From: Minisyncoccia bacterium
GTDB taxonomy: Bacteria > Patescibacteriota > Minisyncoccia > Phycocordibacterales > Zambryskibacteraceae
Assembly (NCBI GenBank): GCA_049651785.1
Contig: JBASCT010000022.1
Coordinates: forward strand, 44 to 64,043
Length of the DNA: 64,000 nt
Direction of reading: 5' to 3'
The position numbers were made by a program, and so were the translations under genes. A model generated the notes under the pieces. It was given only the letters and a program-made list of their open reading frames with translations, made no database searches and was not told where the DNA came from. This document shows positions 3,033-41,499 of this stretch, in pieces (the stretch's first letter is position 1; each line of letters opens with the position of its first letter).

Positions 3033-3935
3033 TCAAGCCCGGCGGCGAGAATGGAACTTTTTGTGCGTCTCCTTAAGCTGACGGTCGGTGACGTGAGTAT
3101 AAATCTGGGTGGTCGCGATATTGGCGTGGCCCAAAAAGACTTGAACGCTTCGGAGGTCGGCGCCGTTTGAGAGGAGGTCGGTCGCGAACATGTGGCGGAT
3201 GACGTGCGGAGTCACTTTCTTCGAAATGCCGGCTTTTATAGCGTAGTGCTTGATGATTCTCTGGGCCGTGCGCGTGGTGACGGGGAAAAGAAAATCGTTG
3301 TCGATATCTTTCCGTTTATCCAAACCTGCCTGCGCAGACAGGTATTTTTTTATCGCCGTCTTGGCCTCGGGAGAGAGAAAAACAAGGCGAACCTTATCGC
3401 CCTTGCCCCGAACACTGAATTCGTCGCCGGAAAGATCGAGGTCGCGCGGCAGGGAACAGAGCTCAGAGACACGAAGCCCGGTGGAAAAAAGAGTTTCCAA
3501 GAGTGCTCTGTCCCGAAGGCCGTTTTCTTCTGAGACATCGGGCGCCTCCAAGAGACGCGTAAGTTCTTCGGGGGTTATGAGGTCTATAGAGCGCTCGCCA
3601 ACCTTGGCCAGCTCTATGGCTTCGGGTGAAAGGGTTTTAAACCCGCGTTTGGCGAGATATTTAAGAAACGCGCGCAGGGCGATGAGATAGTAATTCTGGG
3701 TTTTTTTCTTGAGTGTGTCGTTTTTGGCGGGCTGTCTATTGAGCCAGAGCCGGTACTCGCGCAAGATGTTCGGCGTAATCTCGCTTGTTTTTTTCGCCTT
3801 GGAATAGGAGAGGAATCGAGAGAGATACCGGTCGTAATTTTCTACTGTCTTTAGGCTCCGGCCCTTTTCTATCTCGGTGTATTCCAAGAATTCGCGCTTG
3901 AGTTGTTCGAGCTCGAGTGTCGCCATGTCGCACAA
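3033..3935 (-). CDS. xerC: Tyrosine site-specific recombinase, XerC/XerD family
   Basis: 300 aa; C-terminal catalytic signature HVIRHMFATDLLSNGADLRSVQVFLGHANIATTQIYTH (R..H..R..Y). Confidence 0.85.
   Translation of the reverse strand: MCDMATLELEQLKREFLEYTEIEKGRSLKTVENYDRYLSRFLSYSKAKKTSEITPNILREYRLWLNRQPAKNDTLKKKTQNYYLIALRAFLKYLAKRGFKTLSPEAIELAKVGERSIDLITPEELTRLLEAPDVSEENGLRDRALLETLFSTGLRVSELCSLPRDLDLSGDEFSVRGKGDKVRLVFLSPEAKTAIKKYLSAQAGLDKRKDIDNDFLFPVTTRTAQRIIKHYAIKAGISKKVTPHVIRHMFATDLLSNGADLRSVQVFLGHANIATTQIYTHVTDRQLKETHKKFHSRRRA
3325..3342. repeat. Copy of dispersed GC palindrome (CCTGCCTGCGCAGACAGG, one arm mismatch), inside the xerC coding sequence
   Basis: Direct reading; shares the CTGCCTGCGCAG core with copies at 8715, 32488, 33704 and 54688. 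Confidence 0.6.
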
Positions 3936-7665: not shown

Positions 7666-8508
7666 CTAAAATGGATTCTTCGCGCCACGAACTTCAAAGT
7701 GAACATGTGGCCCTGTTGAGCGACCGGAGCTACCGACGGCCCCGATAGTTTCTCCCTGTGATACGACTTGCCCAACCGAGACATTCACTTTCGAGAGATG
7801 GCCGTAGAGCGTTTGCGTGCCATTGTCATGTCGGACGACGATATAGAGACCGTAGCCACCGTTATAACCGGAGGGTCTGGAAACGATAACCGTGCCTGCG
7901 GCCGAAGCAAAAACGGGCGTTCCCATGGGGGCGGCGATGTCAACGGCGTTGTAGCCGTGTATATTCTGGCTTTTCTTCCCGCCGACGATGGGTCGCATAT
8001 AGTATCCCGCGTAGGTTGGGTAACTCGAAGAGCTACCGGATTGGGCGAGAGTCGTAGGGGCGTTTACGATACCGCCAGGAATAATGATGACATCTCCGGT
8101 TTTGAGTTTGGAGTCCGCGGCAAGACCGTTATATGAAAGGACGTCGTCAAGATCGGCCTTATATTTGGTAGTAATAGATTTGAGCGTGTCGCCCGACTTC
8201 ACGATGTGGCGGACACCCGAGATCGGCAGGATGACGAGCTCCTGACCCTCTTTAATAGTAGAGCCGCGAAGGCTGTTCGCCCAGATAATCGTGTTTCTTG
8301 ATACTCCGAACATCTCGGCGATCTCGCCAAGCGTATCACCCTTGCGGACGACATAGACGCTGATCTCGCCCGTGCCGGATTTGCCAAGGTCAATGAAGAT
8401 GTCGCCCGCGCCACCATAAGATTCGAGCGCCACTTCATCAACGATAATAATTTCGGCTCCGCCCGTGCCGGTCGGATTAATATTGAGATAGCCCTCAAGG
8501 AGGGCCAT
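7666..8508 (-). CDS. Peptidase M23 with two LysM domains. It probably extends upstream by about 45 codons encoding a signal anchor, with no canonical start codon.
   Basis: Two LysM motifs (GDTLGEIAEMFGVSRNTI; GDTLKSITTKYKADLDDV) and the M23 HxxxD...HxH core (GYNAVDIAAPMGTPV...GPHVHFEV). The in-frame upstream reading KKKGLKATVLVALFLFAPLSLAAF runs to 8640. Confidence 0.85.
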   Translation of the reverse strand: MALLEGYLNINPTGTGGAEIIIVDEVALESYGGAGDIFIDLGKSGTGEISVYVVRKGDTLGEIAEMFGVSRNTIIWANSLRGSTIKEGQELVILPISGVRHIVKSGDTLKSITTKYKADLDDVLSYNGLAADSKLKTGDVIIIPGGIVNAPTTLAQSGSSSSYPTYAGYYMRPIVGGKKSQNIHGYNAVDIAAPMGTPVFASAAGTVIVSRPSGYNGGYGLYIVVRHDNGTQTLYGHLSKVNVSVGQVVSQGETIGAVGSSGRSTGPHVHFEVRGAKNPF

Positions 8509-10842: not shown

Positions 10843-11523
10843 GGTTGACACGGTTGACGCTCGGTGTCAACATGAGAGAATAAATTCATGAGAAATATCA
10901 GGTTGGCGGAAGGTGAGTTCTATCACGTCTATAACAGAGGCGTAGACAAGAGGGTGGTCTTTTCTAATAAAAAAGACTTTGATCGGTTCTTGGAGGGTAT
11001 GAAAATATTTAACACGAAAGAAAATGTGGGTAACTTAACTCGCCACAGCAGTACAGAGGGAGAAGAAAAATTGGTTGATTTTGTTGCTTATTGTATTAAC
11101 TCGAATCATTTCCATTTTCTAATTACACCTCTAACAGAAAAAGGGTTGGAAAAATTTATGCACAAATTGTGTATGGGGTATTCGAAATATTTCAACGCAA
11201 AATATCATAGATCAGGCGCTCTTTTCCAGGGAAAATTTAAGGCCATCCATGTTGATACCAATGAGTATTTGTTGCATCTCAGTGCTTATGTAAATTTGAA
11301 CGAAAAAGTTCATAGACATGAGGGGAACAGTAGGTCCAGTTGGGAAGAGTATGCAGAAAGCGCTACAACTGGTTTATGTAAAAAAGACATTATACTTGGT
11401 CAATTTAAAAATCGAGGCGAATATGTAACGTTTGCTAAAAAAGCACTAAAACATATTGTTGATAAAAAATTATCCTTAAAAGACTTGGAATCCAACTCAT
11501 ATCCGTTGACACTCGGTGTCAAC
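10843..11523 (+). mobile_element. IS200/IS605-like element: Y1 (HUH) transposase gene flanked by subterminal hairpins
   Basis: Left end GGTTGACACGGTTGACGCTCGGTGTCAAC (10843-10871); right end GTTGACACTCGGTGTCAAC (11505-11523). The roughly 680-bp size matches IS200. Confidence 0.6.
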
Positions 11524-11541
11524 ATAAAGATAAAGAAATGA
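10888..11541 (+). CDS. tnpA: IS200-like / REP-associated tyrosine (Y1, HUH) transposase
   Basis: 217 aa; HUH motif NSNHFHFLI and catalytic tyrosine region HLSAYVNLN. The stop overlaps the rsmA start (ATGA). Confidence 0.75.
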   Translation: MRNIRLAEGEFYHVYNRGVDKRVVFSNKKDFDRFLEGMKIFNTKENVGNLTRHSSTEGEEKLVDFVAYCINSNHFHFLITPLTEKGLEKFMHKLCMGYSKYFNAKYHRSGALFQGKFKAIHVDTNEYLLHLSAYVNLNEKVHRHEGNSRSSWEEYAESATTGLCKKDIILGQFKNRGEYVTFAKKALKHIVDKKLSLKDLESNSYPLTLGVNIKIKK

Positions 11542-12423: not shown

Positions 12424-12468
12424 TTGTCCTTTAGAGCCGAAAAATGCCTATATTCCGTGTGGTATAAT
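12424..12468 (+). promoter_or_regulatory. Candidate promoter of the T4SS-like operon (extended -10 TGGTATAAT at 12460-12468; weak upstream -35)
   Basis: Direct reading; the first gene's ATG is at 12479 with little or no leader. Confidence 0.45.
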
Positions 12469-12478
12469 TTTCACTAAC

Positions 12479-13264
12479 ATGCGATTCGGAACAATATTTG
12501 CCCTTCTGTTCTCGGTCGTAATCGTAGGACTGGCACTTTTATGGCGTTTCTCGGACACAAAAGAGAGTGAATCTGTCCTTTATTCGGTGGAAACAGAGAG
12601 GCCCGACGACTACGAAGAGGCCTTGGCCTACTTTACCCAGCCAGCTGCCCCGCAAGCGACCACCACCGAGCCCGCCGAACCGAAACCCCTTACGGAGACC
12701 GATATTATCAGCCGCAACCTGCTTCTTAGTTACCTCGGTGTCGCCGTCGGGAACGAGGATATTGAGAAAGAGGATATGGAAAAAGTGGCGGAGCGCTATC
12801 TGGATCAGGCCGTCGGACTCCACAAGTTTGAAAAAATCGGTGCCGAGAGTCTTAAGATGGTGGCGGATAGTGAAGCGAACGCGAGGACCTACGGCCTTGG
12901 GTTCGCAAATATTTACACTACTTACGCGGCCAGCATGGCAGGTGTGATGGGTGACCTTACCGCCACCGACCAGCCGGAGAATACTTACGCGCAGTTTGTC
13001 GCGCCAATAGCAGACTCCTACTCGGGGATCGCAACGGCGCTCAAGGTCCTGCCCGTACCCGTTTCTCTCTCGCTTCTTCACTTGGAGCTTATAAACATTT
13101 ATCTCTCGAATGCGGCCGCTATGAAATCGATTGGGAAAATGAATGAGGAGCCGCTGACTGCCATGTCAGGGCTTGTGGCAATCAAAGAGAACGGGGCGAA
13201 AGAAATGGCCATTCTTAAAGAGCTTATGGAAGTCTTTACCAGCAAGTGGGGCGTAATAGAATAA
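12479..13264 (+). CDS. Signal-anchored hypothetical protein (first gene of T4SS-like operon)
   Basis: Track ORF 12383..13264. I place the start at MRFGTIFALLFSVVIVGLALLW (12479) because it provides an N-terminal hydrophobic anchor and follows the promoter. Confidence 0.45.
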   Translation: MRFGTIFALLFSVVIVGLALLWRFSDTKESESVLYSVETERPDDYEEALAYFTQPAAPQATTTEPAEPKPLTETDIISRNLLLSYLGVAVGNEDIEKEDMEKVAERYLDQAVGLHKFEKIGAESLKMVADSEANARTYGLGFANIYTTYAASMAGVMGDLTATDQPENTYAQFVAPIADSYSGIATALKVLPVPVSLSLLHLELINIYLSNAAAMKSIGKMNEEPLTAMSGLVAIKENGAKEMAILKELMEVFTSKWGVIE

Positions 13265-13268
13265 AAAT

Positions 13269-14393
13269 ATGATACGCAAAAAATATATTACGGGTCTTCT
13301 GGTTCTCTCAATTTTCGCGACAAGTTTCCTGCCGGCCTTCGCTCCCAAGGCAAAGGCACTCTTCGGCGCCTCTATCGTCTTAGACCCCACAGTCAACATG
13401 TCGATTATTTTTGATACTGGCCTTACTCTTGCCAACATGGCCGCAAGAGTCCTGGCCCAAGCGATTTTACAAAGAATGATCGAATCAACTGTTCAGTGGG
13501 CTAATGACGGCTTCGAAGGCAACCCCGCCTATGTCACCGACCCGGATAGCTTCTTCACGAACATCGCCGACAGTGTCGCGGGTGAGATTATCAGGGGTTC
13601 TGACCTTGGCTATCTCTGCTCGCCCTTCCAGAACACCATAAGACGTTCCCTCCAACAAAATTATGTAAATCGAGGTAGCTGGATGCCGCAAAATCGTTAT
13701 CAATGTACTCTAACAAATGTTGTCGGCAATATTGAAGGATTCTATGACGACTTTAGTCAGGGCGGCTGGCAGGGATGGTTTGGCATGACCCAGCGCAGTT
13801 CAAATAATCCATACGGCGCATTTCTTCAGGCACAAGCGGACCTTGATGAAAGAATTGCCAAGAGACTTGACCTCCAAAGAGAGCAGCTAGGTTGGGACAG
13901 TGGATTCTTGAGCTGGAGAGAGTGTACAGGAGGAAGAGCCCCAGGTTCCGGAGAGTGTCTCGGGTTCGGACCGACAAAAACTCCCGGCTCTGTCATCGCC
14001 AATCAGCTCAATCAGGTCTTGCCTGCGAATATGCAGAGATTTATAAATGCCCAGAATCTTGAGGACCTTGTCGCCGCCTTCGTCTCGGGCGCTCTCAACC
14101 GCTATGTCTTCAGCTCCTCCGACGGTCTCTTTAGTTCCGCTCCGCCACCACCGAGAGTCCCCCCGTCGCCACCCCCGCCGACTTCCGGCGCCGGTGCGGT
14201 TCAGACCTGCATGAACAACTGCATCAACCTCTACTGCCCGTCGAGTGACCCAAATAGCGGAAACTGTAACCAGCCGGCACTCAACCGTTGTGTGAATGGG
14301 TGCGCCGGCTTCACACCGCCCGCCCCGGTACCGGGACCGGGCGGTCCATTCTTCCCTGGCCCAGGACCCGGACCAGGCAACCCGATACCCTAA
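13269..14393 (+). CDS. Secreted protein with Pro-rich linker and Cys-rich C-terminal module (hypothetical)
   Basis: Signal peptide LLVLSIFATSFLPAFAPKAKA; PPPPRVPPSPPPPTSG followed by CMNNCINLYCPSS...NCNQPALNRCVNGCAG. Confidence 0.5.
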   Translation: MIRKKYITGLLVLSIFATSFLPAFAPKAKALFGASIVLDPTVNMSIIFDTGLTLANMAARVLAQAILQRMIESTVQWANDGFEGNPAYVTDPDSFFTNIADSVAGEIIRGSDLGYLCSPFQNTIRRSLQQNYVNRGSWMPQNRYQCTLTNVVGNIEGFYDDFSQGGWQGWFGMTQRSSNNPYGAFLQAQADLDERIAKRLDLQREQLGWDSGFLSWRECTGGRAPGSGECLGFGPTKTPGSVIANQLNQVLPANMQRFINAQNLEDLVAAFVSGALNRYVFSSSDGLFSSAPPPPRVPPSPPPPTSGAGAVQTCMNNCINLYCPSSDPNSGNCNQPALNRCVNGCAGFTPPAPVPGPGGPFFPGPGPGPGNPIP

Positions 14394-14397
14394 TTAG

Positions 14398-16485
14398 TTG
14401 ATGAAAAGATACGCCAAGAGAATTTCCGCCTTTCTCCTCGTTTTTATCCTTGTCTTCGGGATAAGTGGCGTTATCGCACCCCAAACGGCTGATGCTTGGA
14501 TATTCGAATACATACAGTGTGCCCTGAGTAACAGCTCGTTTGCTTGCGCTCTACGAGGCTTGGTTACCGGGCTCATGGAGGCGGTGCTTGCAATTGCGGG
14601 TCTTATTACCGGTCTTGCTGGAGTCATGCTTAACGGTGTTGTTTATCACACTGTCGTTAACGTGGCACAGAACTACGCCAATATTCCCGCGATAGACGCG
14701 GCCTGGACCACCGTCCGAGACCTCGCCAATATGGTCTTTATCTTCCTGCTCCTTTACGCGGCAATACGCATCATCCTCGGCTGGGGCGAGGACAGTAAGC
14801 GTCTCATCGTCAATATCATCATCGTCGCCATTCTCATAAACTTCAGTCTCTTTTTCACAAGAATTGTCATAGATGCTTCGAACATGTTGGCGCTCTTCTT
14901 CTACGGCGCCATAAGCCCTGGCGCATCAGTTAATAACTTTTCGCTTGACCCGGGTTCCACGAGCATCGCCGATCAGTTTATGAGCCGGCTTGAATTAACA
15001 AACCTTTATAATGCTGAGGGTGTTGAGACCAGCACAATCTTTGTCATGGGAATAATGGGCACGATGATGCTCATGATAGCTGCGTTTGTCTTTTTCTCCA
15101 TATCTATCATGTTTATCGTGCGGTATGTGATGCTAATTTTCGTTCTTATCCTCTCACCATTGGCCTTTCTTTCATACGCGTTTCCCGCCCTAAGAGGGGC
15201 GGGAAGTAAGTGGCTCGACACGCTGATAGGACAATCGTTTTTTGCGCCAATATATTTCATGATTACTTGGATTGCCCTAAGAGTACTGGGAGATGTAGCG
15301 AGAGTATTGGGAATCGATACCGGAGATTTGCAAGATGCAAGAAACTCCATATCACAGATTGCCACGGCCCAACCCGGCCAGCTGACCATAGAACCCTTTA
15401 TGGTGATTTTGAATTTTCTAATAGTTATTGTCTTTCTCTTGGCTTCACTATCTATCGCAAAGAGTTGGGCCAATCGGGCGGGAAATAGTGCACAAAAGGC
15501 AAACAAGTGGCTTGCTGGGGCTGCCGTTGGAACTGCGGCATTTGCCGGCAGACAAACGGTCGGTAGATATGCCGCCAGAACAGCAGAAAGGGGTGATTTG
15601 AAAGAAAGAGCGCTCGCTGGAGATAGGGGTGCTCGTCTGCAACTTTGGGCGGCAAGAAAGGGGGCCGCCGCAAGTTTTGATGCTAGAGGAGCAGGTCTTG
15701 GTATTGGTGCCGCAATGGATATGGGCAAGGCTGGTGGCAAGGGTGGCTATGCTGAATTCAGAAAGAAACAGGATGATAAGCTAGAGAAAATTGCTAAATC
15801 TTACGGTCCTTCGGAAGTAGAAATTGATCAGGCAAAACAAGCCTTGGCGAGGGCAAAAGAGAGCGGAACAGAACAAGAAAGGAGAGAGGCGCAAGCAAGG
15901 GTGGATCAGCTAGTGGGTATAAAAGGAGGAAAAGAAGGGAAAAAAGAAATCGCATCAAGAAAAGAAGATTTAAGGAGGAGAAAGGAACAGGCATTAAAAA
16001 ATGATGCGAACCTACAATCCTCCATAAACAAAGAGTTGGATATTGAGGAACAAATAAGGGATCAGGAACGCGAGGTTTCCATTGCCGCCAATCCGCACCT
16101 GAAAAGAGAGCGCGAAATGAAGCTTGATGAACTTAAAACACAATTAGAAAAACAGAAACAGGCTTCTAAAGCATTGAGTTCGTCTATTACTGAGGCCTTT
16201 GACAAAGAAATTGAGGGAATAAAAGAAACGAGTAGTTTGGCAGAAAAACATAAGCTGGCCTATGCTTCAATGATTGAAAAAGATTTCATTCCAACAATCC
16301 TCGGCTACAACAAGACAGCGGCGGCCAAAATAAGGGCTGGTAAATCAAAGAAAGATCAAGCTGTAGAGGCATTAAAGGGGCTCCAAGAAGAAGGCGTGAT
16401 TGAAGGTGGTGCCGAAAAAGAGGCGGCGGAACCAGAAACTTCACCAGAAACAACTAATTCTGAAGGTAATCCAAAGGCCGCATGA
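14398..16485 (+). CDS. Polytopic membrane protein with long K/E-rich coiled-coil tail (VirB6/TrbL-like topology)
   Basis: 695 aa; N-terminal signal, about six hydrophobic helices over residues 50-350, then about 300 aa of charged coiled coil. Assigned by topology and its position next to the VirB4-like gene. Confidence 0.55.
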   Translation: MMKRYAKRISAFLLVFILVFGISGVIAPQTADAWIFEYIQCALSNSSFACALRGLVTGLMEAVLAIAGLITGLAGVMLNGVVYHTVVNVAQNYANIPAIDAAWTTVRDLANMVFIFLLLYAAIRIILGWGEDSKRLIVNIIIVAILINFSLFFTRIVIDASNMLALFFYGAISPGASVNNFSLDPGSTSIADQFMSRLELTNLYNAEGVETSTIFVMGIMGTMMLMIAAFVFFSISIMFIVRYVMLIFVLILSPLAFLSYAFPALRGAGSKWLDTLIGQSFFAPIYFMITWIALRVLGDVARVLGIDTGDLQDARNSISQIATAQPGQLTIEPFMVILNFLIVIVFLLASLSIAKSWANRAGNSAQKANKWLAGAAVGTAAFAGRQTVGRYAARTAERGDLKERALAGDRGARLQLWAARKGAAASFDARGAGLGIGAAMDMGKAGGKGGYAEFRKKQDDKLEKIAKSYGPSEVEIDQAKQALARAKESGTEQERREAQARVDQLVGIKGGKEGKKEIASRKEDLRRRKEQALKNDANLQSSINKELDIEEQIRDQEREVSIAANPHLKREREMKLDELKTQLEKQKQASKALSSSITEAFDKEIEGIKETSSLAEKHKLAYASMIEKDFIPTILGYNKTAAAKIRAGKSKKDQAVEALKGLQEEGVIEGGAEKEAAEPETSPETTNSEGNPKAA

Positions 16486-16973
16486 CCGAAGAAGAAAAGC
16501 TTATAAAAGAACAGTGGGACAAACTACCGCCGGCACTCCAGCGGGCGATTGAATCTCTGCCTTGGAAAAGTTTGGTGAAAGAAGTTGGCCAGGCGAATGC
16601 CTTAGACAACGAGCAGTTGGTCTCGCTTGAGAGAGAGGCGATGTTTATCCTATATGGCTTTGAGAACCCCGCTGATTTTGTCTCAAACATCACAAGAGAG
16701 GTTGGGGTTTCTGAAGAAAAAGCTCTGGCGGTAGCGGCAGCCATTGCCGAAAAGATTTTTGAACCTATTTCTACAAAAATTGCTGCTGGGTCTGGCTCAA
16801 ACGCAGCTCTACCCATGGTCGAGGAGGGGGAAAAAGTTCATGATGCTCCGCATGTTGAAGCGGCACCAACACAGCCTGCGCCGCAGGCACGGCCGGAACC
16901 GAAGATAAAAACTCCTTTACCAGATTATCGTTACCCCGACGGCACGGATCCCTACCGCGAACCTCTTAAGTAG
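16482..16973 (+). CDS. Hypothetical protein (operon member; start overlaps upstream stop)
   Basis: 163 aa; ATGA overlap at 16482-16485. Confidence 0.45.
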   Translation: MTEEEKLIKEQWDKLPPALQRAIESLPWKSLVKEVGQANALDNEQLVSLEREAMFILYGFENPADFVSNITREVGVSEEKALAVAAAIAEKIFEPISTKIAAGSGSNAALPMVEEGEKVHDAPHVEAAPTQPAPQARPEPKIKTPLPDYRYPDGTDPYREPLK

Positions 16974-16988
16974 GCTCGCGGGGAAGCA

Positions 16989-17008
16989 GGGAGTAAGAAG
17001 TAGGAAGT
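16989..17008. repeat. Left inverted repeat (GGGAGTAAGAAGTAGGAAGT) abutting the ATG of the four-helix-bundle gene
   Basis: Its reverse complement matches ACTTCTTACTTCCTAC-type units in 17396-17452. Confidence 0.6.
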
Positions 17009-17392
17009 ATGATAATTGATGCAAAAATCAAAACCTTTAGGGATCTAAAAGTCTGGCAAGAGGCTCATAAGTTAGTGCTGGAAATATACAAAGTTACCAA
17101 AAGTTTTCCCAAAGAAGAGTCGTTTGGTCTAACTAGCCAGCTTAGGCGAGCATCGGTGTCTATAACCTCGAACATTTCCGAAGGTTTTAACAGAAGTTCT
17201 GCCAAAGAAAAACTACAGTTTTATTACATTGCCCTCGGTTCGCTCGCCGAGGTTCAAAATCAATTACTAATAGCGAAAGACATAGGTTATATAAAGCCAG
17301 AAATGTCTGATAAAATAGAAGAGCAGTTGATCGTGGCACAAAAATTGCTTAACGGTTTTATAAAAAGTACCCGTTCATTCTCCGAATCATGA
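17009..17392 (+). CDS. Four-helix-bundle protein of the type encoded in 23S rRNA intervening sequences
   Basis: 127 aa; FRDLKVWQEAHKLVLEIYKVTKSFPKEESFGLTSQLRRASVSITSNISEG is the characteristic signature. Confidence 0.75.
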   Translation: MIIDAKIKTFRDLKVWQEAHKLVLEIYKVTKSFPKEESFGLTSQLRRASVSITSNISEGFNRSSAKEKLQFYYIALGSLAEVQNQLLIAKDIGYIKPEMSDKIEEQLIVAQKLLNGFIKSTRSFSES

Positions 17393-17395
17393 CCC

Positions 17396-17452
17396 ATCTT
17401 ACTCCTTACTCCTTCCTTCCTACTTCTTACTTCTTACTCCTTACTTCTTAAT
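17396..17452. repeat. Right inverted repeat with tandem CTTACTC/CTTCCTA heptamer-like units
   Basis: ATCTTACTCCTTACTCCTTCCTTCCTACTTCTTACTTCTTACTCCTTACTTCTTA; starts 4 nt after the stop and ends 4 nt before the next ATG. Confidence 0.6.
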
Positions 17453-17455
17453 TTC

Positions 17456-17884
17456 ATGCGCTTTCAAGTCCCACAATTCATAGAGGTGGAAGACAAAATT
17501 TTCGGACCACTTACCTTTAAGCAATTCGTCTACGCCGGCGGCGGTATCGGCGTCGCGGTCGTTCTCTTTTTCCTCATCCCGAAGTTTCTCGCCATTCTCA
17601 TCGGCCTGCCGATAATGGCTTTCGGCTTCGCCCTCGCGTTCTACAAGATTAACGGCAAGCCGTTCATCGCCGTCGTCGAAGCGTTTGCCAAATACACTTT
17701 CACCAACAAGCTCTATCTCTGGAAAAAGGAGGAGAAAGCGCCGGTCGCGGGCGAGAGAGACAAGCCCTTGGAGCAAGTTTATGTGCCGAAGCTCTCCGAT
17801 TCGAAACTTAGAGAGCTCACCTGGGGCCTCGGGGTCAAAGATGACATAAATTCAGAGAGCGATCGGAGAGAGGATAAGATATAA
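17456..17884 (+). CDS. Small two-TM protein (VirB3/PrgI-like candidate)
   Basis: 142 aa; two hydrophobic helices (IGVAVVLFFLIPKFLAILIGLPIMAFGFALAFY) and the position directly upstream of the VirB4-like ATPase. Confidence 0.45.
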   Translation: MRFQVPQFIEVEDKIFGPLTFKQFVYAGGGIGVAVVLFFLIPKFLAILIGLPIMAFGFALAFYKINGKPFIAVVEAFAKYTFTNKLYLWKKEEKAPVAGERDKPLEQVYVPKLSDSKLRELTWGLGVKDDINSESDRREDKI

Positions 17885-17891
17885 TTAGACA

Positions 17892-18545
17892 ATGGCCCAA
17901 GCTTCGAGCCCCACACAGGAGTTCATCCCGATAAAAGAGGTGCGCGACGGCGTCGTGATGCTCAAAGATGGCGGCATGCGCGCCATCCTCCTCTGCTCGT
18001 CCTTAAACTTCTCGCTCAAGTCGGAGGACGAGAGGCAGGCTATCCTTTACCAATTCCAGGATTTCCTGAATTCGCTCGACTTTTCTATAGAAATAATCAT
18101 TCAGTCGAGAAAGCTCGACATCCGCCCCTACATCGCCCTCCTCGAGACGCAGGAAAAGAATCAGGTAAACAATCTGATGAAAATACAGGTGAGAGAATAT
18201 ATCGAGTTCATAAAGAATTTCACCGAGTCGACAAGCATTATGACCAAACACTTCTTCATCGTCGTGCCCTACAGTCCTGCCCTCCTCTCGACGGGGAAGG
18301 CGGATGGGCTCGCCGGCGGTATTACTTCGAAGCTCGGGCTCGGCGGTAAGAAAGAAGGTCCAATAACAACCGAGACAAGCTTCGACGAGAACAGGAGCCA
18401 GCTCGAAGAGCGCTTGGGCGTCGTCGAACAGGGTCTCATAAGAAGCGGTATTAGGGTCGCGCGACTGGGAACGGAAGAGGCGATAGAACTGTTCTACAAA
18501 GCGTTTAACCCCGGCGAGACCGAGAAGCCGATTAAACTCCAATAA
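17892..18545 (+). CDS. Hypothetical protein; possibly the detached N-terminal domain of the VirB4-like ATPase
   Basis: 217 aa; ends 1 nt before the 18547 ATG in a different frame. Combined length 843 aa matches VirB4/TraC proteins. Confidence 0.45.
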   Translation: MAQASSPTQEFIPIKEVRDGVVMLKDGGMRAILLCSSLNFSLKSEDERQAILYQFQDFLNSLDFSIEIIIQSRKLDIRPYIALLETQEKNQVNNLMKIQVREYIEFIKNFTESTSIMTKHFFIVVPYSPALLSTGKADGLAGGITSKLGLGGKKEGPITTETSFDENRSQLEERLGVVEQGLIRSGIRVARLGTEEAIELFYKAFNPGETEKPIKLQ

Positions 18546-18546
18546 C

Positions 18547-20427
18547 ATGGGGCTCTTCGATACACTCTTCAATAAAAAGAAGGATGGGAAGCAGGACATT
18601 GCCTCTATCCTGCCTAAAGAGATTTTCGAAGCGGGCGCCTTGGAGCTCAAAGATATTATCGCCCCCTCCGCCCTCAAGGTCGGGCCGAAAGAAATAAATC
18701 TCGGTGAGAAGGTTTTGAGAAGTTTCTTTGTAATCTCCTATCCGCGCTTCCTCTCCGAGGGGTGGTTCAGTCCAATTATCAATATGGACAAGGTCTTCGA
18801 CGTCTCAATCTTCGTCCACCCGATAGAGACCTCCAAGGTTCTGCGCCAATTCCAAAGAAAGGTTGCCGAAGTGCAGTCCCAAATTCACGGCAGAGAGGAG
18901 AAGGGTCTTGTGCGCGATCCGGTCCTTGATGTCGCCTACCAAGACCTCGAGAACCTGCGCGACCAGCTCCAACAGGCGCAAGAAAAGCTTTTTGACGTCG
19001 GTCTCTACATCACAATCTACGGCGACAACTCCGATGATTTGGATAAAATCGAGTCGGAGATAAAATCCATTCTTGAAGCAAAACTCATCTACGTTAAGCC
19101 CGCCCTCTTCCAGCAGGAACAGGGCTTCAAAAGCACCTTACCCTTAGGAAACGACCTCTTGGAGGTTCACTCTAAGCTAAATTCCTCTCCACTCTCCTCT
19201 CTCTTTCCATTTACTTCATTTGACCTGACTTCCGACAAAGGCATCCTCTACGGTATTAATAGACATAACTCCTCCCTCGTCCTCTTCGACCGCTTCTCGC
19301 TTGAGAACTACAACTCAATAATGTTCGCGAAGTCCGGCGCCGGCAAATCCTACGCCACGAAGCTTGAAATCTTGAGGACTCTTATGTTCGACACGGAGGT
19401 TATCGTCATCGACCCGGAGCGAGAGTACGAATACATGGCGGAAGCGACGGGCGGCAGATATTTCAAGATCTCCCTTAACTCCGAGCACCACATCAACCCC
19501 TTCGACCTACCCGTCCCGGGCCCGGACGAGAGCACGGCCAATGTCCTTCGTTCAAATATTATCAACCTAGTCGGCCTCTTCCGCCTGATGATGGGCGGTC
19601 TCACGGCGGAAGAAGACGCCATAATAGATCGCGCCATCACCGAGACCTATGCTCTGAAGGACATTACGGCCGAGTCAGACTTCAGAAATGTCGAGCCGCC
19701 TCTCATGTCTGACTTCGAGCTCGTGCTCGCGGGCATGGAGGGTGGCGAGTCTCTGGCCCAAAGACTTTCAAAATACACCAAAGGCACGTGGTCGGGCTTC
19801 ATCAACCGCCCTTCGAATGTCGATATCAATAAAAAGTTCGTGGTCTTCTCGCTCCGAGACATGGAGGATGAACTGAAACCCATCGCCATGTACATCGTCA
19901 CGCACTACATCTGGAATTCGATTAGGAAAGATCTTAGAAAGCGCCTCCTCGTCATTGACGAAGCGTGGTGGATGATGAAGTCGGAGGACACCGCCTCTTT
20001 CCTCATGGGCCTCGTCAAGCGAGGCAGAAAATATTTCCTCGGGGTCGCCACGATAACGCAGGACGTCGGGGACTTCTTGAAGAGTCCTTATGGACTCCCG
20101 ATTATCACCAACTCGTCAATTCAGATTCTGATGAAGCAGTCGCCAACAATTATCGACGAGCTTCAGAAAACTTTCAACCTGACGGATGAGGAAAAGTTCT
20201 TATTGCTTGAGTCCGACAGGGGAGAAGGAATCTTCTTCGCCGGCCTCAAGCACGTCGCGATAAAAAACATTGCTTCCTACACCGAGGACCAGATTATCAC
20301 CTCCGACCCGTCGCAAGTCTTGGCCATCAAGCGCGCCAAGCAAGAAGAAGTGTGGAAACAGGATGCCGAAACGGAAGCCAAGAAAGCCGAGATCCTTGCG
20401 GCCAAGGCGCAACCGAATAAACAATGA
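18547..20427 (+). CDS. virB4: VirB4/TraC-family T4SS ATPase
   Basis: 626 aa; Walker A FAKSGAGKSY, Walker B RLLVIDEAWWMM, and C-terminal motifs typical of the CagE/TrbE/VirB4 family. Confidence 0.8.
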   Translation: MGLFDTLFNKKKDGKQDIASILPKEIFEAGALELKDIIAPSALKVGPKEINLGEKVLRSFFVISYPRFLSEGWFSPIINMDKVFDVSIFVHPIETSKVLRQFQRKVAEVQSQIHGREEKGLVRDPVLDVAYQDLENLRDQLQQAQEKLFDVGLYITIYGDNSDDLDKIESEIKSILEAKLIYVKPALFQQEQGFKSTLPLGNDLLEVHSKLNSSPLSSLFPFTSFDLTSDKGILYGINRHNSSLVLFDRFSLENYNSIMFAKSGAGKSYATKLEILRTLMFDTEVIVIDPEREYEYMAEATGGRYFKISLNSEHHINPFDLPVPGPDESTANVLRSNIINLVGLFRLMMGGLTAEEDAIIDRAITETYALKDITAESDFRNVEPPLMSDFELVLAGMEGGESLAQRLSKYTKGTWSGFINRPSNVDINKKFVVFSLRDMEDELKPIAMYIVTHYIWNSIRKDLRKRLLVIDEAWWMMKSEDTASFLMGLVKRGRKYFLGVATITQDVGDFLKSPYGLPIITNSSIQILMKQSPTIIDELQKTFNLTDEEKFLLLESDRGEGIFFAGLKHVAIKNIASYTEDQIITSDPSQVLAIKRAKQEEVWKQDAETEAKKAEILAAKAQPNKQ

Positions 20428-20810
20428 ACGAAGAAGGGGAACAAATACAGGAACAAGAGCTAGAGCACCATAAGAAGTTCGGAGGAGTAACCTTTATCCT
20501 GATGCTCATCGTGGCTCTGTTTTTCGACGGTATTCAGATTCTGGTCCAGCTCATTCCGGTCGCGGGACAGATTCTCGGAAGCGTCATCGGTCTTCTCGCT
20601 TTCATGACCTTTTTCCTCTGGTTTGCCATGAAGGGCATGAGGTTTCTGACCGCAGGAAGAATTATCACCATGACAGGAACCTTGTTCGTGGAAGTTATAC
20701 CTTTAGCCAGCGCCCTGCCCGTCTGGACCCTTTCGATTGTCCTTATGTTTATCACCAGTAAGTTTGGGCGAACTACCAAAGTTGCGAGTATAATAACATC
20801 AAGGAAATGA
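20424..20810 (+). CDS. Small polytopic membrane protein (operon member)
   Basis: 128 aa with 3-4 hydrophobic helices; ATGA overlap with the upstream stop. Confidence 0.5.
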   Translation: MNEEGEQIQEQELEHHKKFGGVTFILMLIVALFFDGIQILVQLIPVAGQILGSVIGLLAFMTFFLWFAMKGMRFLTAGRIITMTGTLFVEVIPLASALPVWTLSIVLMFITSKFGRTTKVASIITSRK

Positions 20811-21514
20811 AGCCATTTTACTCCCTTTTAATAGCCCTCCTACTTGCTCCGGCGTTTAGCGTCTCGGCGCAGGAGGTAGACATCCTCTGGCAAGGTGAGA
20901 CCTACACTCCGCCGTTTTACGAAGGTCGGGCCCTCTGGTCAAATCAGTCGAGAATTACCTTGGTCGCCATACCGCAAGGCTTAGGAAATCCGACAAGCCT
21001 CAACTATAAGTGGATAAAAAATGGCACGGTGCTTGGTAATGTGAGTGGAATCGGTAGAGGCTCTCTTTTCTTCATCGATACGGTGCTCTCAAGGCCGCAG
21101 ACGATAGAGGTGGAGATTATCGCGAGCGACAAGAGCGTTCTCGCCAAGAATTCGGTCTATGTCGTCCCGCGCCCGCCCGCCTTGGCGGTGTATGAAAATA
21201 ATCCGCTCTACGGCTTCATGTTCCACAAAGAAATCAGCGAGTATGATATGCAGAGTCCCGAAGTGGTTCTGGCCGCCTTCCCGCTATTCTTCAGCACTTC
21301 TGACCGTTCTGACTTTTCCTTGGAATACGACTGGGCGAGCAATGCCGGCGACAGAAATAAAGAAAGTTCGGTAACCTATCGTGCGCCCGAAGGGGGTTCC
21401 GGCTCGGCAAGTGTAACGGTGCGGGTCAAGAGCTTGGATAATCTTATGCAGTCGGCAAGTAAAAATTTGCTCTTAAAATTTAATAGCGAGAATATTAATA
21501 ACTTCGGATTATGA
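20807..21514 (+). CDS. Secreted hypothetical protein
   Basis: Signal peptide MKPFYSLLIALLLAPAFSVSA; translationally coupled. Confidence 0.5.
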   Translation: MKPFYSLLIALLLAPAFSVSAQEVDILWQGETYTPPFYEGRALWSNQSRITLVAIPQGLGNPTSLNYKWIKNGTVLGNVSGIGRGSLFFIDTVLSRPQTIEVEIIASDKSVLAKNSVYVVPRPPALAVYENNPLYGFMFHKEISEYDMQSPEVVLAAFPLFFSTSDRSDFSLEYDWASNAGDRNKESSVTYRAPEGGSGSASVTVRVKSLDNLMQSASKNLLLKFNSENINNFGL

Positions 21515-22353
21515 AATATTTAATTGGCGCCACGCTTTCTCTGTTCCTGTTTATCGGTCTAGCGAGTTTTTCATTCGCACAAGATTACCAGCTGCTTCAA
21601 CCCCTGCCCATAGGTACCGGTGGAACGGAAGCAAGGACAATCACGCCGACTCAATATATTTCAGGCATGTTCATGTTAATTATCGGCATTGCGGGAGTTC
21701 TTGCGGTCATTATGATTATCGTCGGCGGTATTAAGTACATGACGACCGATGCCATGGGGGCGAAAAGTGACGCCAAGAAAACAATCCAAAACGCTATTTT
21801 CGGTCTGCTCCTCGCTCTCGGTGCTTGGATAATTCTCTACAGCATCGGCGGCGATCGCTTGACGAACTTTACCATTTCTCTTGACGCAATCCCGGCCGCA
21901 AGCACAACTCCGCCAATCCAACGAGAACCCTGGCCCGATGACTCCGCGCTACGCCGAGCTTTGCTCCAGAATGGAATTACCGTCCAAAGAACAACCTCAT
22001 GTTTATGGGTAGGACAAACGGCGTGTACCTCTCTTTCTGACATAGGTGGCACCGTAATTGCCGGGCTAGGAACGCTTCGGGCAAATTGTCCTACTTGCAT
22101 GATTGTTATCAACGGCGGGACAGAGTATTGGCTTCATGGTAATGGATCAAGAGTGTTGGCAGACAACCCAACGGACCATAGGCCTGGAGGGGGCGCGGTT
22201 GATTTGGACAACACCACGACCCTAAACAGATTTGTACTTGACAACGGACAAGAAATAACCGGTAGAAACAATTGTAGTAACGTTGGCCCTGCTTACAGGA
22301 TTGGAAATGCAATTTATGTTAACGAGTTTAACCACTGGCATGTCTGCTACTAA
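21511..22353 (+). CDS. Pilin-like protein (signal peptide + two hydrophobic helices, VirB2/TrbC-like topology) fused to a Cys/His-containing C-terminal domain
   Basis: MKYLIGATLSLFLFIGLASFSFA, then FMLIIGIAGVLAVIMIIVGGIKYMTTDAMGAKSDAKKTIQNAIFGLLLALGAWIILYSI. C-terminal HGNGSRVLAD...DHRPGGGAVD...EFNH resembles metallopeptidase motifs (weak). Confidence 0.5.
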   Translation: MKYLIGATLSLFLFIGLASFSFAQDYQLLQPLPIGTGGTEARTITPTQYISGMFMLIIGIAGVLAVIMIIVGGIKYMTTDAMGAKSDAKKTIQNAIFGLLLALGAWIILYSIGGDRLTNFTISLDAIPAASTTPPIQREPWPDDSALRRALLQNGITVQRTTSCLWVGQTACTSLSDIGGTVIAGLGTLRANCPTCMIVINGGTEYWLHGNGSRVLADNPTDHRPGGGAVDLDNTTTLNRFVLDNGQEITGRNNCSNVGPAYRIGNAIYVNEFNHWHVCY

Positions 22354-22359
22354 CAAAAA

Positions 22360-23616
22360 ATGAAAAAAATATTATTAATTTCCGGTGGAGTAATTCTCGT
22401 AATCGTCTTGGGAATTTTTTCCTGGATTCTCGTCTCCAAAGATCCAGAGGTGCCGGTGGGTGAGGCCCTGAGGGACTTTTTGCCGTTCGGTTCGGGCGAT
22501 GACTTCGTCGTGCCTCCCGGTGGGGGCGGGTTCAGCGAGGGCGGGGGCGGTGAAGATTCTTCGGCGGGCGAGGGTGGTGCTCCTGAGAAAATTCTTTTCC
22601 GTATTACTGACGTTCCCGTCGCTGGCTTCGTCGCCCTTAATAGGGGCACCTCTTCTACGGCCGTGCGCTATGCCGAGCGCGCCACGGGCCATATCTACGA
22701 AGTGAATCTTGGGAATCTTGAGAGAGCAAGGCTGACGAACCAGACCCTGCCGAAAATTTATGAGGCGCACTTCCGAGCGGACGGGAGCGCCGTCCTCTTC
22801 AGATCACTTAAAGATGATTCTGATGTAGTAGAAAATATTTCTCTCGCTCTTACACCGCCGAAGGCGACGGCCACTTCTTCGGAAGAAGAGTTTTACTCCG
22901 TTTCATCAACGCCTCTGCGCGGCGAACTTGGCTCAACTGCGGCCGGTTCCACAAACACTCTTTTCTATGTTCTTGAGGACGCGGGCTCTGTCGTCTCGTC
23001 CGCCTTTGACGGCTCGGGTCAGAAGACTCTTCTTTCTTCGCAATTCACCGACTGGGCTCTTGCTCCTTACGGCAACACGGGTCTTCTCGTTTATACCAAG
23101 GCTGGCGGCGCCAATACTCCCGGATATGCCTACACTCTTGGCGGCTCAGGAGGTCTTACTAAAGTTATCGGACCGGTTCCGGATTTGACGGCCCTTATGA
23201 GTCACGACGGCAAGAGGTTGGTTCTTTCCCAGAGTTATGCCGGAAGCATCAGATCTTTTATAAGAAATGTGGAAGATGATACCAGCTTCGAAATGTCTTC
23301 TCCCACCTTTGCCGACAAATGTGTCTGGAGCAGAGCAAGGCTTGCGGTCGTTTTCTGCGCCACTCCTTCAAACAATATTGGCTCGGGTGAGCCGAGCAAT
23401 TGGTATTTGGGCCGCACCTCGTTCCAAGACAAGATTTGGGTCTTTGATGCCGAAACAGAACTCTCGGAGCTTCTCGCCGAGCCGGCAAATGTTGTCGGTT
23501 TGGATCTCGACGTTGTCGAGCTGAAACTTTCTCCCAGGGAAGACTACCTGGTGTTTATAAATAAAAAAGATCTGTCACTCTGGGCGCTTAAGCTTGAGCC
23601 GGCCCCCGAGGAGTAG
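22360..23616 (+). CDS. Signal-anchored extracellular protein (last gene of T4SS-like operon)
   Basis: 418 aa; N-terminal TM helix, Gly-rich linker (PPGGGGFSEGGGGEDSSAGEGG), then a large probably beta-rich domain. Confidence 0.5.
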   Translation: MKKILLISGGVILVIVLGIFSWILVSKDPEVPVGEALRDFLPFGSGDDFVVPPGGGGFSEGGGGEDSSAGEGGAPEKILFRITDVPVAGFVALNRGTSSTAVRYAERATGHIYEVNLGNLERARLTNQTLPKIYEAHFRADGSAVLFRSLKDDSDVVENISLALTPPKATATSSEEEFYSVSSTPLRGELGSTAAGSTNTLFYVLEDAGSVVSSAFDGSGQKTLLSSQFTDWALAPYGNTGLLVYTKAGGANTPGYAYTLGGSGGLTKVIGPVPDLTALMSHDGKRLVLSQSYAGSIRSFIRNVEDDTSFEMSSPTFADKCVWSRARLAVVFCATPSNNIGSGEPSNWYLGRTSFQDKIWVFDAETELSELLAEPANVVGLDLDVVELKLSPREDYLVFINKKDLSLWALKLEPAPEE

Positions 23617-24646: not shown

Positions 24647-24781
24647 TTAGGCGGCGAGTCTCCTTCTGCCCTTTCTTCGTCTATTACGAACGGTCCTTCT
24701 GCCGGTGGAACTTTTGTGTCGCGATAAAAATCCGTGAGTTCTGGCTCTTTTCCTCTTTTTTGGTTGGTAAGTTCTCGACAT
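24647..24781 (-). CDS. rpmH: 50S ribosomal protein L34
   Basis: Manual translation [44 protein letters not shown] (44 aa); not in the track because it is under 60 aa. Confidence 0.9.
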
Positions 24782-38997: not shown

Positions 38998-39434
38998 GAG
39001 ACGAGTTTTATCACAAAGACCTTTTCGGCGCGGTTGTGGACTTCTCTCCCAAAGAGGAAGAAGAAAAGCCCCTTTTTGACAAAAAGGGCAGAGAATTTAA
39101 TATTTTTATCCTAACGGACGCCTTGGGTGCCAGAAATAAAAAAGAAGCTTGGACTCTTTACCAGAAGGCCTTGGCGGCCGGGGTCTCGGTCGATGAAATA
39201 TTTTTCAAAATTTTCTGGCAAGTGAAATCTATGCTTCTGGCTTCAAAAACGAAGGGTGTCGCCGAGACCGATATGAAGCCATTCCCCTACAACAAAGCCA
39301 AAGGTTACGCCAAAAACTATTCTCCCGAGGAGCTAGAAAACCTCTCACAAAGTCTTGTCGAGGGCTATCTCCTGGCCCGCCGCGGCGAAGGGGAGATTGA
39401 GACCCTGCTCGAAAAAATACTTCTTAAACTATGA
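38994..39434 (+). CDS. Hypothetical protein coupled to polA
   Basis: 146 aa; ATGA overlap with the polA stop; no confident family. Confidence 0.4.
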   Translation: MRDEFYHKDLFGAVVDFSPKEEEEKPLFDKKGREFNIFILTDALGARNKKEAWTLYQKALAAGVSVDEIFFKIFWQVKSMLLASKTKGVAETDMKPFPYNKAKGYAKNYSPEELENLSQSLVEGYLLARRGEGEIETLLEKILLKL

Positions 39435-39452
39435 AAATGCTATGATTGTTGT

Positions 39453-40646
39453 ATGAATAACGACCCCATTGGCAAGAATGGTAACGGGCTAGCTGATGTG
39501 GAACCAACTATTTTCAACCGTAATCAAAAATTAAAGAAACTTTTAATAATACTCTCTGCTTCTGTGTTGTTGAGTGTATTTATTTTATTTAAAAACGATA
39601 CCCCCTTTTCCTCTCGGCTTGTGCCGTCTGAGAAATTAGCACCACAATTACAAGAAGGCATCGACAATGCTAGTACTAGCGAACCTATAATACTAACCGC
39701 CCGAGGCGAGGGCGGCTATGTGATTAAGGATGGAATTCTTTATTACTTTTCTCGCGAGGTGCCCGGTGTTGATATTGCGACCCTTGAAGTTATTAACGAT
39801 TATTGGGTTAGGGATAAAAATAATGCCTATAATGGAGAAAAAATTTTTGACCATGATGAGGTAGATGTTGGGTCTCTTGAAATTCTTGATGGATATGTCA
39901 TCAAAGATAACAAAAATGTTTATTCCACTATTGGTGACAAACTACAAATTGTTCCAAATGTTGATATAACAAGCTTCCAATATGTTGGAACTTGTAAAGG
40001 GTTTTCAGGTGCCCGCGGCGAAAACTATTTTCGAGACAAGTTTAATATATACCATGCAACATATGGACAAGATTTCGCTCCAAATTTTTCGATTAAAAAA
40101 TTAGATTATATAGATACTTCATCGTTTCAATATTTAGGTTTTTACTCCCCCTTTGGACCAGGGGAGATACAGCCCTCGGTGCCCTACGCGAAGGATAAAA
40201 ACAATATCTACTATGCCTGCGGCGAGATTTTAAAAGACGCGGATCCAAATAGTTTTATAGACTTTACAGACGGTTATGCCAAGGATAAGTTAACGGTTTG
40301 GTATTTGGGCGAATTGATTGAGGGAGCAGATTCGGCGACATTTCAACCATTAACTACTAAATATTACCATAACGGATATTACTGGGGTGATTTTTACGCC
40401 AAAGACAAATCAAATGTTTACGTTGGAGGCCACGTTCTTGGTGACCTTGATCCCGCGACACTTGTAATTGTTGAAGGGTGGCTCCTGGAGGACCAAGTAT
40501 TTACTATCTACTTAAAAGATAAAAATTATGTTTACGCAGCTGCTGGTTACAAAGTAACTGGAGTTAATCCCACAGACTGTACTCCAGAAACATTCTCAAA
40601 GTGCAAAAACGATGATTACCAGAGATACAATCTAGGGCCCTTCTAG
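39453..40646 (+). CDS. DKNYY-repeat membrane-anchored protein
   Basis: N-terminal TM helix; at least seven repeats of (K/R)DKNN(I/V)YY-type units (KDKNNIYYA, KDKSNVYVG, KDKNYVYAA...). AT-richer than the flanking core genes. Confidence 0.65.
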   Translation: MNNDPIGKNGNGLADVEPTIFNRNQKLKKLLIILSASVLLSVFILFKNDTPFSSRLVPSEKLAPQLQEGIDNASTSEPIILTARGEGGYVIKDGILYYFSREVPGVDIATLEVINDYWVRDKNNAYNGEKIFDHDEVDVGSLEILDGYVIKDNKNVYSTIGDKLQIVPNVDITSFQYVGTCKGFSGARGENYFRDKFNIYHATYGQDFAPNFSIKKLDYIDTSSFQYLGFYSPFGPGEIQPSVPYAKDKNNIYYACGEILKDADPNSFIDFTDGYAKDKLTVWYLGELIEGADSATFQPLTTKYYHNGYYWGDFYAKDKSNVYVGGHVLGDLDPATLVIVEGWLLEDQVFTIYLKDKNYVYAAAGYKVTGVNPTDCTPETFSKCKNDDYQRYNLGPF

Positions 40647-40667
40647 TGCGCCCAGTAGCGGTCGAAC

Positions 40668-41498: not shown

Positions 41499-41499
41499 G

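Follow-up and report, generated by a model that had tools for sequence, protein, structure and literature searches.

The 64-kb stretch of Minisyncoccia bacterium DNA analysed here (the window) carries, on its plus strand between positions 12479 and 23616, a cluster of 12 tightly packed open reading frames (ORFs) that almost certainly encodes a vertically inherited chromosomal type IV secretion system (T4SS) of the Patescibacteria, in the Paceibacteria or 'Minisyncoccia' arrangement and related to the monoderm MPF-FATA conjugation machinery. Its parts are a VirB6/TrbL-like membrane protein, PrgI, TrsD, the ATPase VirB4, a VirB2-type pilin, six accessory proteins and one unrelated ORF of the 23S_rRNA_IVP family. 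The cluster is a correct rediscovery of a published system and a typical Paceibacteria example of it. When this identity is combined with a role as a contact conduit, we put the probability of the whole explanation at about 0.6; the mechanistic part taken by itself, a host-contact conduit that works without a coupling protein, stands at roughly even odds.

The VirB4 ORF (18547-20427) comprises the middle and C-terminal ATPase domains and matches NCBIfam conju_CD1110 with 377 bits (E 1.7e-112; cutoff 325 bits) over profile positions 183-736, as well as Pfam P-loop_TraG (E 1.4e-25). Its best solved relative in the PDB is the Thermoanaerobacter VirB4 C-domain 4AG5 (7e-41), followed by TrwK of R388 (2.4e-8), and it contains the Walker A motif SGAGKS and the Walker B motif LLVIDEAWW. 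An earlier reading made without database searches (the sequence-only reading) had called this ORF a VirB4 ATPase with Walker A and B motifs, and the call holds: a test for FtsK or HerA identity set beforehand came out negative, that identity being ruled out by the conju_CD1110, 4AG5 and TrwK matches. The best curated family of the protein is the MPF-FATA CD1110 type. A scan with one genome per species covered 586 relatives, and the locus counts given in this report refer to the best 80 of the 586, ranked by VirB4 similarity; VirB4 identity is 78-92% across these 80 species. The window VirB4 is identical to a protein from an NCBI 'Minisyncoccia bacterium' metagenome-assembled genome, its relatives belong to Zambryskibacteria, Taylorbacteria and other Parcubacteria/Paceibacteria, and among the matches listed (120 best) every named source is a member of the Patescibacteria or an unclassified 'bacterium' metagenome-assembled genome, at 88-100% identity.

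As judged from the profile matches, the N-domain absent from the VirB4 ORF, whose match begins at profile position 183, is the preceding 217-amino acid (aa) TrsD-like ORF (17892-18545), a separate gene for the VirB4 N-domain that the sequence-only reading overlooked. Directly upstream of virB4, it aligns with N-terminal stretches of VirB4 profiles that are themselves full-length (Mbov_0397 positions 102-233, E 2.4e-12; CD1110 positions 1-114) and with the TrsD/TraD family (5.5e-5), all three NCBIfam matches staying under their curated cutoffs. The split is genuine because TrsD is a separate ORF in 78 of the 80 loci (median identity 62%). PrgI (17456-17884; 142 aa), the VirB3 equivalent of monoderm T4SSs, is a predicted two-helix membrane hairpin; its earlier description as VirB3/PrgI-like is borne out by Pfam PrgI (E 8.9e-13; 49 bits against a 27-bit cutoff), and it occurs in 76/80 loci at a median identity of 51%. 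The polytopic VirB6/TrbL-like protein (14398-16485; the true start is probably the ATG at 14401) has about 7-8 hydrophobic segments followed by a charged, coiled-coil-like cytoplasmic tail of about 300 aa, 58% of which are K, E, R, D, Q or A, as the earlier description of a K/E-rich tail had it. It narrowly reaches Pfam TrbL (E 7.5e-6; 26.3 bits against a 25.9-bit cutoff), a threshold that 3 of 40 homologues reach individually, and is found at the same position in 61/80 loci. The family assignments proposed from the letters therefore stand, including that of the pilin; what they left out is TrsD, and the IVP ORF turned out to be unrelated to secretion.

We counted 12 same-strand ORFs in the cluster rather than the thirteen first proposed, and no gap is roomy enough for a further one. 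The start and stop codons overlap as ATGA at 16482, 20424, 20807 and 21511, as had been stated; the remaining junctions were given as 1-7 nucleotides (nt), and are in fact 1-8 nt with the exception of 36-nt and 63-nt spacers on either side of the IVP ORF. An extended -10 element, TGgTATAAT, can be read on the plus strand at 12461-12469, 10 nt before the ATG at 12479, where the sequence-only reading had also placed one, and it presumably acts as the operon promoter. The operon mRNA would be nearly leaderless, the -10 element lying only 10 nt before the first ATG. The site is not listed by the consensus promoter scan because it has no -35 element. No convincing terminator was found inside the cluster by consensus scan, and the Rfam scan returned tRNAs only in the window and nothing within the cluster. 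At its far end, the 3' end of the last ORF, o12, overlaps the 3' end of the convergent yidC by 29 nt.

The cluster occupies a fixed place near the chromosomal dnaA gene. Upstream lie uvrD/pcrA, a Y1-transposase-like ORF and the directly adjoining rsmA, while yidC, rnpA and rpmH (24647-24781) follow on the minus strand, and then dnaA and dnaN; family matches thus confirm the proposed position between rsmA and the yidC-rnpA-rpmH / dnaA block. The Y1 ORF (10888-11541; IS200-like, PF01797, 8e-8) sits between uvrD and rsmA, and its stop codon overlaps the rsmA start (ATGA at 11538). Of the best 80 loci, those on contigs that extend far enough keep the order uvrD-rsmA-[cluster]-yidC-rnpA-dnaA-dnaN, in more than 40 species, and all of them contain the cluster. 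The internal order o1-o2-VirB6-o4-PrgI-TrsD-VirB4-o9-o10-pilin-o12 is the same in nearly all of 44 species, with positional orthologues of o1, o4 and o9 often too diverged for BLAST. In four related species (loci L018, L030, L037 and L069) a further ORF of 535-550 aa, which the window lacks, separates rsmA from the position of o1.

Given that the flanks and the internal order are conserved in more than 40 species, the cluster is, on synteny, a vertically inherited chromosomal machine and not an integrative conjugative element (ICE), in agreement with the sequence-only reading. An integrated conjugative element or its decayed remnant would fit the closest relationship of VirB4, which is to the CD1110 (CTn2) family of conjugative-transposon ATPases, as well as the presence of a tyrosine recombinase gene (3033-3935) and of the Y1 ORF; however, this explanation is effectively refuted and retains almost no probability. 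The recombinase, the only such gene in the window, lies 8.5 kb off behind housekeeping genes, and the Y1 ORF occurs in only 3/80 loci. No att-like boundaries were seen at the flanks of the more than 40 species, where no explicit att-repeat search was made. All genes are intact, the apparent constraint on VirB4 is stronger than that on DnaA, and the GC content of the cluster is not deviant. Recent horizontal acquisition was considered separately and is ruled out by the GC content, which matches that of the flanking DNA, and by the conserved synteny.

No relaxase or type IV coupling protein (T4CP) was found in the 64-kb window among 30 of the larger ORFs that lie outside the cluster (every sizeable non-shadow ORF of at least 250 aa plus ten of 180-250 aa), which are housekeeping genes, unrelated or without a family match; the absence claimed from the letters is thereby upheld. 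Likewise, the clusters of the 44 species contain no inserted gene as large as a T4CP or a relaxase, and no VirB11 was found in the 64 kb.

The conservation of the components is uneven. In the 31 species that hold all families, median pairwise identity is 80.6% for VirB4, followed by TrsD (63%), DnaA (61%), PrgI and UvrD (53% each), RsmA (49%), DnaN (48%) and YidC (45.5%), and it falls to 38% for the pilin, 33% for o2, 32% for o10, 31% for o12 and 30% for VirB6. Identity to the window is higher for VirB4 than for DnaA in all 53 of 53 loci, within a set that was itself picked by VirB4 similarity, a choice that biases the absolute values. Even so, this within-genome comparison shows, at the level of protein identity, a very strongly constrained motor next to surface parts that diverge quickly. 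Moreover, members of the o2 and pilin families have exchanged their C-terminal domains.

The pilin gene o11 (21511-22353; 280 aa, against a median of 318 aa in relatives) lies three genes downstream of virB4 and is the sole pilin-family gene of the cluster. It had been described as a protein of pilin topology, and it matches PF18895 (T4SS_pilin). An AlphaFold model built on a 100-sequence alignment (mean predicted local distance difference test score 86; about 98 over residues 140-280) begins with a signal peptide and a helical hairpin (46-78, 82-113), from which a flexible linker leads to a compact alpha/beta domain, the predicted 140-aa extracellular C-terminus. This C-domain appears to have a Hedgehog/DD-peptidase-like fold with a conserved putative zinc site and is a probable cell-wall peptidase, with moderate support. 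Across 100 homologues, H223, D231, E272, H275, H277 and four cysteines either never vary or are kept in at least 90% of the sequences, and the equivalent positions are likewise invariant in 60 divergent representatives. We take the spacing H-x7-D ... E-x2-H-x-H to resemble the metal site of M15/LAS enzymes, and the residues that bind the metal would presumably be among these. The C-domain family numbers 382 clusters at 50% identity and sits C-terminally in its proteins; a recognisable pilin domain is present in 46/60 sampled divergent representatives. In the other direction, the pilin gene carries the peptidase-like domain in only 16/64 loci, the others having different C-terminal extensions.

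Several searches with o11 returned at best sub-threshold matches. Foldseek found no significant match of the model in the PDB, tblastn of the C-domain against phage genomes gave no match, and hhalign of the family against the endolysin Ply500 of Listeria phage A500, a LAS peptidase, gave none either. Pfam recognised the pilin domain alone in the 100 and 60 homologues, save for one M15_3 match at 0.037, and two sub-threshold matches in 175 homologue scans (M15_4, 0.0026; M15_3, 0.037) leave the C-domain outside curated M15 membership. A more far-reaching proposal is that of an enzymatically armed pilus, in which the polymerised pilin would display the zinc-peptidase-like domain along or at the tip of the T4SS fibre and cut host peptidoglycan to open the junction, with swappable o2 and pilin C-modules setting the host range. 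We regard this as quite unlikely; if true, a conjugation-type pilus would be acting in a new way, and there would be a concrete handle on how Paceibacteria breach their hosts.

The six accessory proteins are mostly exported or membrane-anchored. The first, o1 (12479-13264; 261 aa), has a transmembrane (TM)-like segment at residues 3-21 serving as a putative N-terminal anchor, followed by an external domain of about 240 aa, and is the most divergent member of the cluster. No relatives of o1 were found in Pfam, NCBIfam or PDB profile searches, and none are detectable outside the clade; in most of the 44 loci o2 is preceded by a positional orthologue about 270-350 aa long, often too diverged for BLAST. 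The secreted protein o2 (13269-14393; 374 aa) starts with an N-domain of about 285 aa that is conserved and contains invariant cysteines; in the window copy a Cys/Pro-rich tail follows. Its homologues range from 284 to 655 aa, and their tail is replaced by immunoglobulin-like (Ig-like), discoidin, fn3, PKD, InlB-B or SdrD-B domains. Because such adhesin-type domains swap at the tail in relatives, o2 is suggested as a candidate host-binding or tip protein.

The protein o4 (16482-16973; 163 aa) has no TM segment and is a predicted cytoplasmic protein with a helical N-domain, a variable Pro-rich linker and an invariant C-terminal DPYRE motif (16947-16961 of the window). D156, Y158 and E160 are invariant across 38 homologues, and among the ORFs of the 80 loci 63 of 64 occurrences of the motif lie at most 8 residues from the C-terminus. 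A small integral membrane protein with about four hydrophobic segments, o9 (20424-20810; 128 aa), follows VirB4, as a similar ORF does in most loci. No Pfam family was found in 34 homologues of o9, and its candidacy as a second pilin was ruled out by an hhalign probability below 1%. The exported protein o10 (20807-21514; 235 aa; 74/80 loci) has a signal-like N-terminus and repeated Ig-like units, two in the window and three in most relatives; its consensus contains Y-x-W-x-x-N-G repeats, and it has a weak profile match to the Ig-like domains of phage Hoc (E 5e-4). The last gene, o12 (22360-23616; 418 aa), is found in 62/80 loci and is always last in the cluster. It has a TM segment at residues 7-25 as its N-terminal anchor and a probable beta-propeller ectodomain, for which the signals are weak (DPPIV_N, 7.8e-4; TolB profile, E 0.09). 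PDB profile searches for o1, o2, o4 and o12 returned nothing usable.

The system to which the cluster belongs has been described in a survey of 3,035 Patescibacteria genomes, in which most VirB4s form one clade nested in MPF-FATA (Quinonero-Coronel 2025, Microb Genom, PMC12102498). In that survey virB4 has TrsD, PrgI, VirB6 and PF18895 pilins in its vicinity and seldom an adjoining T4CP gene, relaxases are almost entirely missing, and the virB4 neighbours in Paceibacteria and Microgenomatia include dnaA, dnaN, rnpA, ksgA and rpmH (PMC12102498). The window cluster is alike in having VirB4 with adjacent TrsD, PrgI/VirB3, a VirB6-like protein and a PF18895 pilin, in lacking a nearby relaxase or T4CP, in its place beside dnaA, dnaN, rnpA, ksgA (rsmA) and rpmH, and in the apparent MPF-FATA affinity of its VirB4; nothing essential differs. 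The novelty implied by the sequence-only reading is accordingly lost, since the system, its relaxase-less state and its dnaA-side position were already published. The portions of PMC12102498 available to us do not mention the fixed 11-gene order, the pilin-peptidase-like fusion, the modular o2, the DPYRE-tailed o4 or the higher conservation of VirB4 than of DnaA. Of what is described here, only the pilin-peptidase fusion and the modular o2 family may be new.

Such systems had also been said to be described only computationally, which no longer holds: in the Saccharibacterial Ca. Southlakia epibionticum ML1 a homologous T4SS and its pilins are essential for epibiotic growth by transposon sequencing (Wang 2023, Cell, PMC10633639). 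That cluster has no recognisable T4CP or relaxase, and peptidoglycan hydrolases are encoded downstream of its virB4 (PMC10633639). The Southlakia genes SEML1_0006-0019 resemble the window in their position near the origin (low locus-tag numbers), in their PF18895 pilins and in the absence of T4CP and relaxase, and their core order VirB6 ... PrgI - TrsD-like - VirB4 - ... - peptidoglycan hydrolase / Ig-like exported protein parallels that of the window. Since that place in Southlakia is taken by separate essential lysozyme-like proteins, having a wall hydrolase encoded after VirB4 seems to be a conserved arrangement. The two clusters differ in their pilins: Southlakia has an array of six small ones (103-185 aa) encoded on the opposite strand, whereas the window encodes one large pilin to which a peptidase-like domain is fused. 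Southlakia also encodes its lysozyme-like hydrolases separately and has a second giant membrane protein as well as an NTF2-like (VirB8-like) protein; no NTF2 protein can be recognised in the window.

Two more distant groups of systems can be compared. The MPF-FATA conjugative T4SSs (pCF10 Prg/Pcf, pGO1/pSK41 Trs and CTn2 of C. difficile) share with the window a CD1110-family VirB4, PrgI and a VirB6-like channel protein. They also resemble it in that the N-domain is split off as TrsD, which is the case in pGO1, and in that a cell-wall hydrolase activity, probable in the window, goes with the system. In contrast, they are located on plasmids or ICEs and have a relaxase, a T4CP (PcfC/TrsK type), surface adhesins and no VirB2-type pilins, whereas the window system has a pilin and a fixed chromosomal site without relaxase or T4CP. 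H. pylori ComB and archaeal Ced likewise combine VirB4-, VirB6- and VirB2-like proteins with no relaxase or coupling protein. ComB, however, has an outer-membrane core of VirB7-10, CedB is a distinct equivalog (the window VirB4 scores 37.6 bits against its 700-bit cutoff), and DNA import is known for ComB and Ced but for no Patescibacteria system.

In T4SSs that are well understood, VirB3/VirB6 is the docking site of VirB4, which drives the extraction of pilin and the assembly of the fibre; a system that lacks a T4CP can only form pili or contacts, import (ComB, Ced) or export in two steps (Ptl). On this background, the VirB6-like protein and PrgI would form a membrane platform on which VirB4 would dock, its N-domain supplied in trans by TrsD. 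VirB4 would then spend ATP on extracting the VirB2-type pilin from the membrane into a short surface fibre or tube, and the zinc-peptidase-like C-domain of the pilin may open peptidoglycan, either of its own wall or of the host's. The adhesin modules of o2, the Ig-like repeats of o10 and the anchored propeller of o12 could build and aim the site of contact with the host cell. With no relaxase and no coupling ATPase, the cluster would not conjugate, and would instead provide a conduit for host contact that needs no coupling protein. The gene identities, the operon-like packing, the conserved order and site, the lack of relaxase and T4CP in the 64 kb and the uneven conservation are observed, whereas pilus assembly, wall cutting, the host-contact role and the direction of transport are what we infer for this system. 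The function is stated as unknown in the literature, where effector delivery, signal exchange and uptake of host molecules are the ideas considered (2025 review, PMC12857230; 2024 perspective, PMC11665869).

A number of points weigh against this explanation. The VirB6 assignment is the weakest of the core, given the borderline Pfam TrbL score and the few homologues that reach it, and no VirB8-like component was identified in the cluster; homologues of VirB7-10 were not detected by Pfam or NCBIfam. A pilin that bears a 140-aa globular domain may fail to polymerise. VirB4 identity is inflated to some extent because of how the 80 loci were picked. The absence of T4CP and relaxase refers to the 64 kb, and either may be encoded elsewhere in the genome. 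VirD4-like matches occur in most Patescibacteria genomes, mostly distant from virB4 (PMC12102498). Finally, the Paceibacteria systems are known from genes alone, the organism studied here has no known host, and essentiality refers to Southlakia only.

Among the rival explanations, an import machine of the Ced/ComB kind, in which DNA, nucleotides or host macromolecules would be pulled in through the VirB6 channel by VirB4, is possible but doubtful. Its composition, with VirB4, VirB6-, VirB3- and VirB2-like proteins and neither T4CP nor relaxase, matches two known DNA-importing T4SS relatives, and nucleotide acquisition has been proposed as a candidate role (PMC11665869). A local match of VirB4 to CedB (1e-9) points the same way, but covers the P-loop core only and stays at the low score given above. 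The window also encodes the usual monoderm uptake route, namely type IV pilus genes and comM, while the cluster contains no recognisable DNA-binding component. In Southlakia, where competence needs ComEC, a comEC deletion is viable (PMC12857230), and the essential role of its T4SS is therefore not ComEC-coupled DNA uptake; this counts against that form of uptake, and not against direct import. Somewhat less credible, and unlikely in our view, is an effector translocator that would act in two steps on Sec-exported intermediates, in the style of pertussis toxin and Ptl, or with a coupling ATPase encoded elsewhere. Exporters without T4CP do exist (Ptl and Brucella VirB; PMC12857230), the cluster's accessory proteins have N-termini of the Sec type, effector delivery has been a matter of speculation in Saccharibacteria, and VirD4-like genes are common elsewhere in Patescibacteria genomes (PMC12102498). 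However, no candidate effector/immunity pair was seen in or beside the cluster in 44 species, neither VirB11 nor T4CP is found in the 64 kb, and the T4CP homologue of Southlakia is non-essential while its T4SS is essential.

The remaining rival turns the pilin argument around: the 'pilin' would never polymerise, its hairpin would anchor a wall-remodelling enzyme, and the cluster would be a machine for envelope assembly or cell-wall maintenance unrelated to hosts. The large size of the sole pilin-family gene, with its globular domain, its relatives being larger still at the median, agrees with this, as do the housekeeping envelope genes around the cluster (yidC and a PBP1a-type gene) and a VirB4 that is conserved like an essential housekeeping protein. 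We nevertheless consider it very unlikely. Among the surface components, divergence is fast and adhesin-type domains (Ig-like, discoidin, fn3, PKD) are exchanged, which is expected of partner recognition rather than of housekeeping; in Saccharibacteria, moreover, pilins of this Pfam family are small, and epibiotic growth requires them.

The 23S_rRNA_IVP ORF (17009-17392; PF05635, E 4e-41) is an inserted cassette and not a secretion component. It sits on the plus strand in the loop of a 30-nt purine/pyrimidine-rich inverted repeat (arms 16983-17012 and 17418-17447, 87% complementary), so that the cassette as a whole spans 16983-17447. The ORF occurs in only 14/80 loci, at varying positions. Significant duplexes flank the ORF in the window as well as 9 of the 14 other IVP copies, which suggests a mobile, stem-bracketed cassette resembling an rRNA intervening sequence. 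Its stem could create an RNase III site in the operon mRNA.

Elsewhere in the window we confirmed the pilB, pilM-like and comM genes named in the sequence-only reading, and found a PBP1a-type gene. A protein with LysM and Peptidase_M23 domains is encoded on the minus strand at 7666-8508, 4 kb upstream of the cluster; these two domains occur among the VirB1-like hydrolases of Patescibacteria (PMC12102498). Positions 39000-42000 have a low GC content (0.40-0.41 versus about 0.49 elsewhere) and contain a gene for a DKNYY-family protein (39453-40646) and a LAGLIDADG-domain ORF on the minus strand (40668-41498) that abuts a tRNA gene (41500-41570); this stretch may be a small island or a homing-endonuclease insertion. 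Metabolic content that is unusual for a reduced genome lies at 57106-60186 and 50303-51106, namely a tandem pair of GH130 genes (mannoside phosphorylase family) and an ORF that weakly matches alternative oxidase (AOX).

The role of the T4SS is one of the questions in how ultrasmall, biosynthetically poor Patescibacteria live on other cells. As a typical Paceibacteria example of a published system, the window leaves that picture unchanged. It does offer targets for experimenters: the VirB4 and TrsD motor, conserved above the level of DnaA, and the fixed 11-gene order, together with the fast-evolving, domain-swapping surface parts as candidate host-range determinants and a pilin whose probable wall-cutting domain lends itself to expression and assay in isolation.

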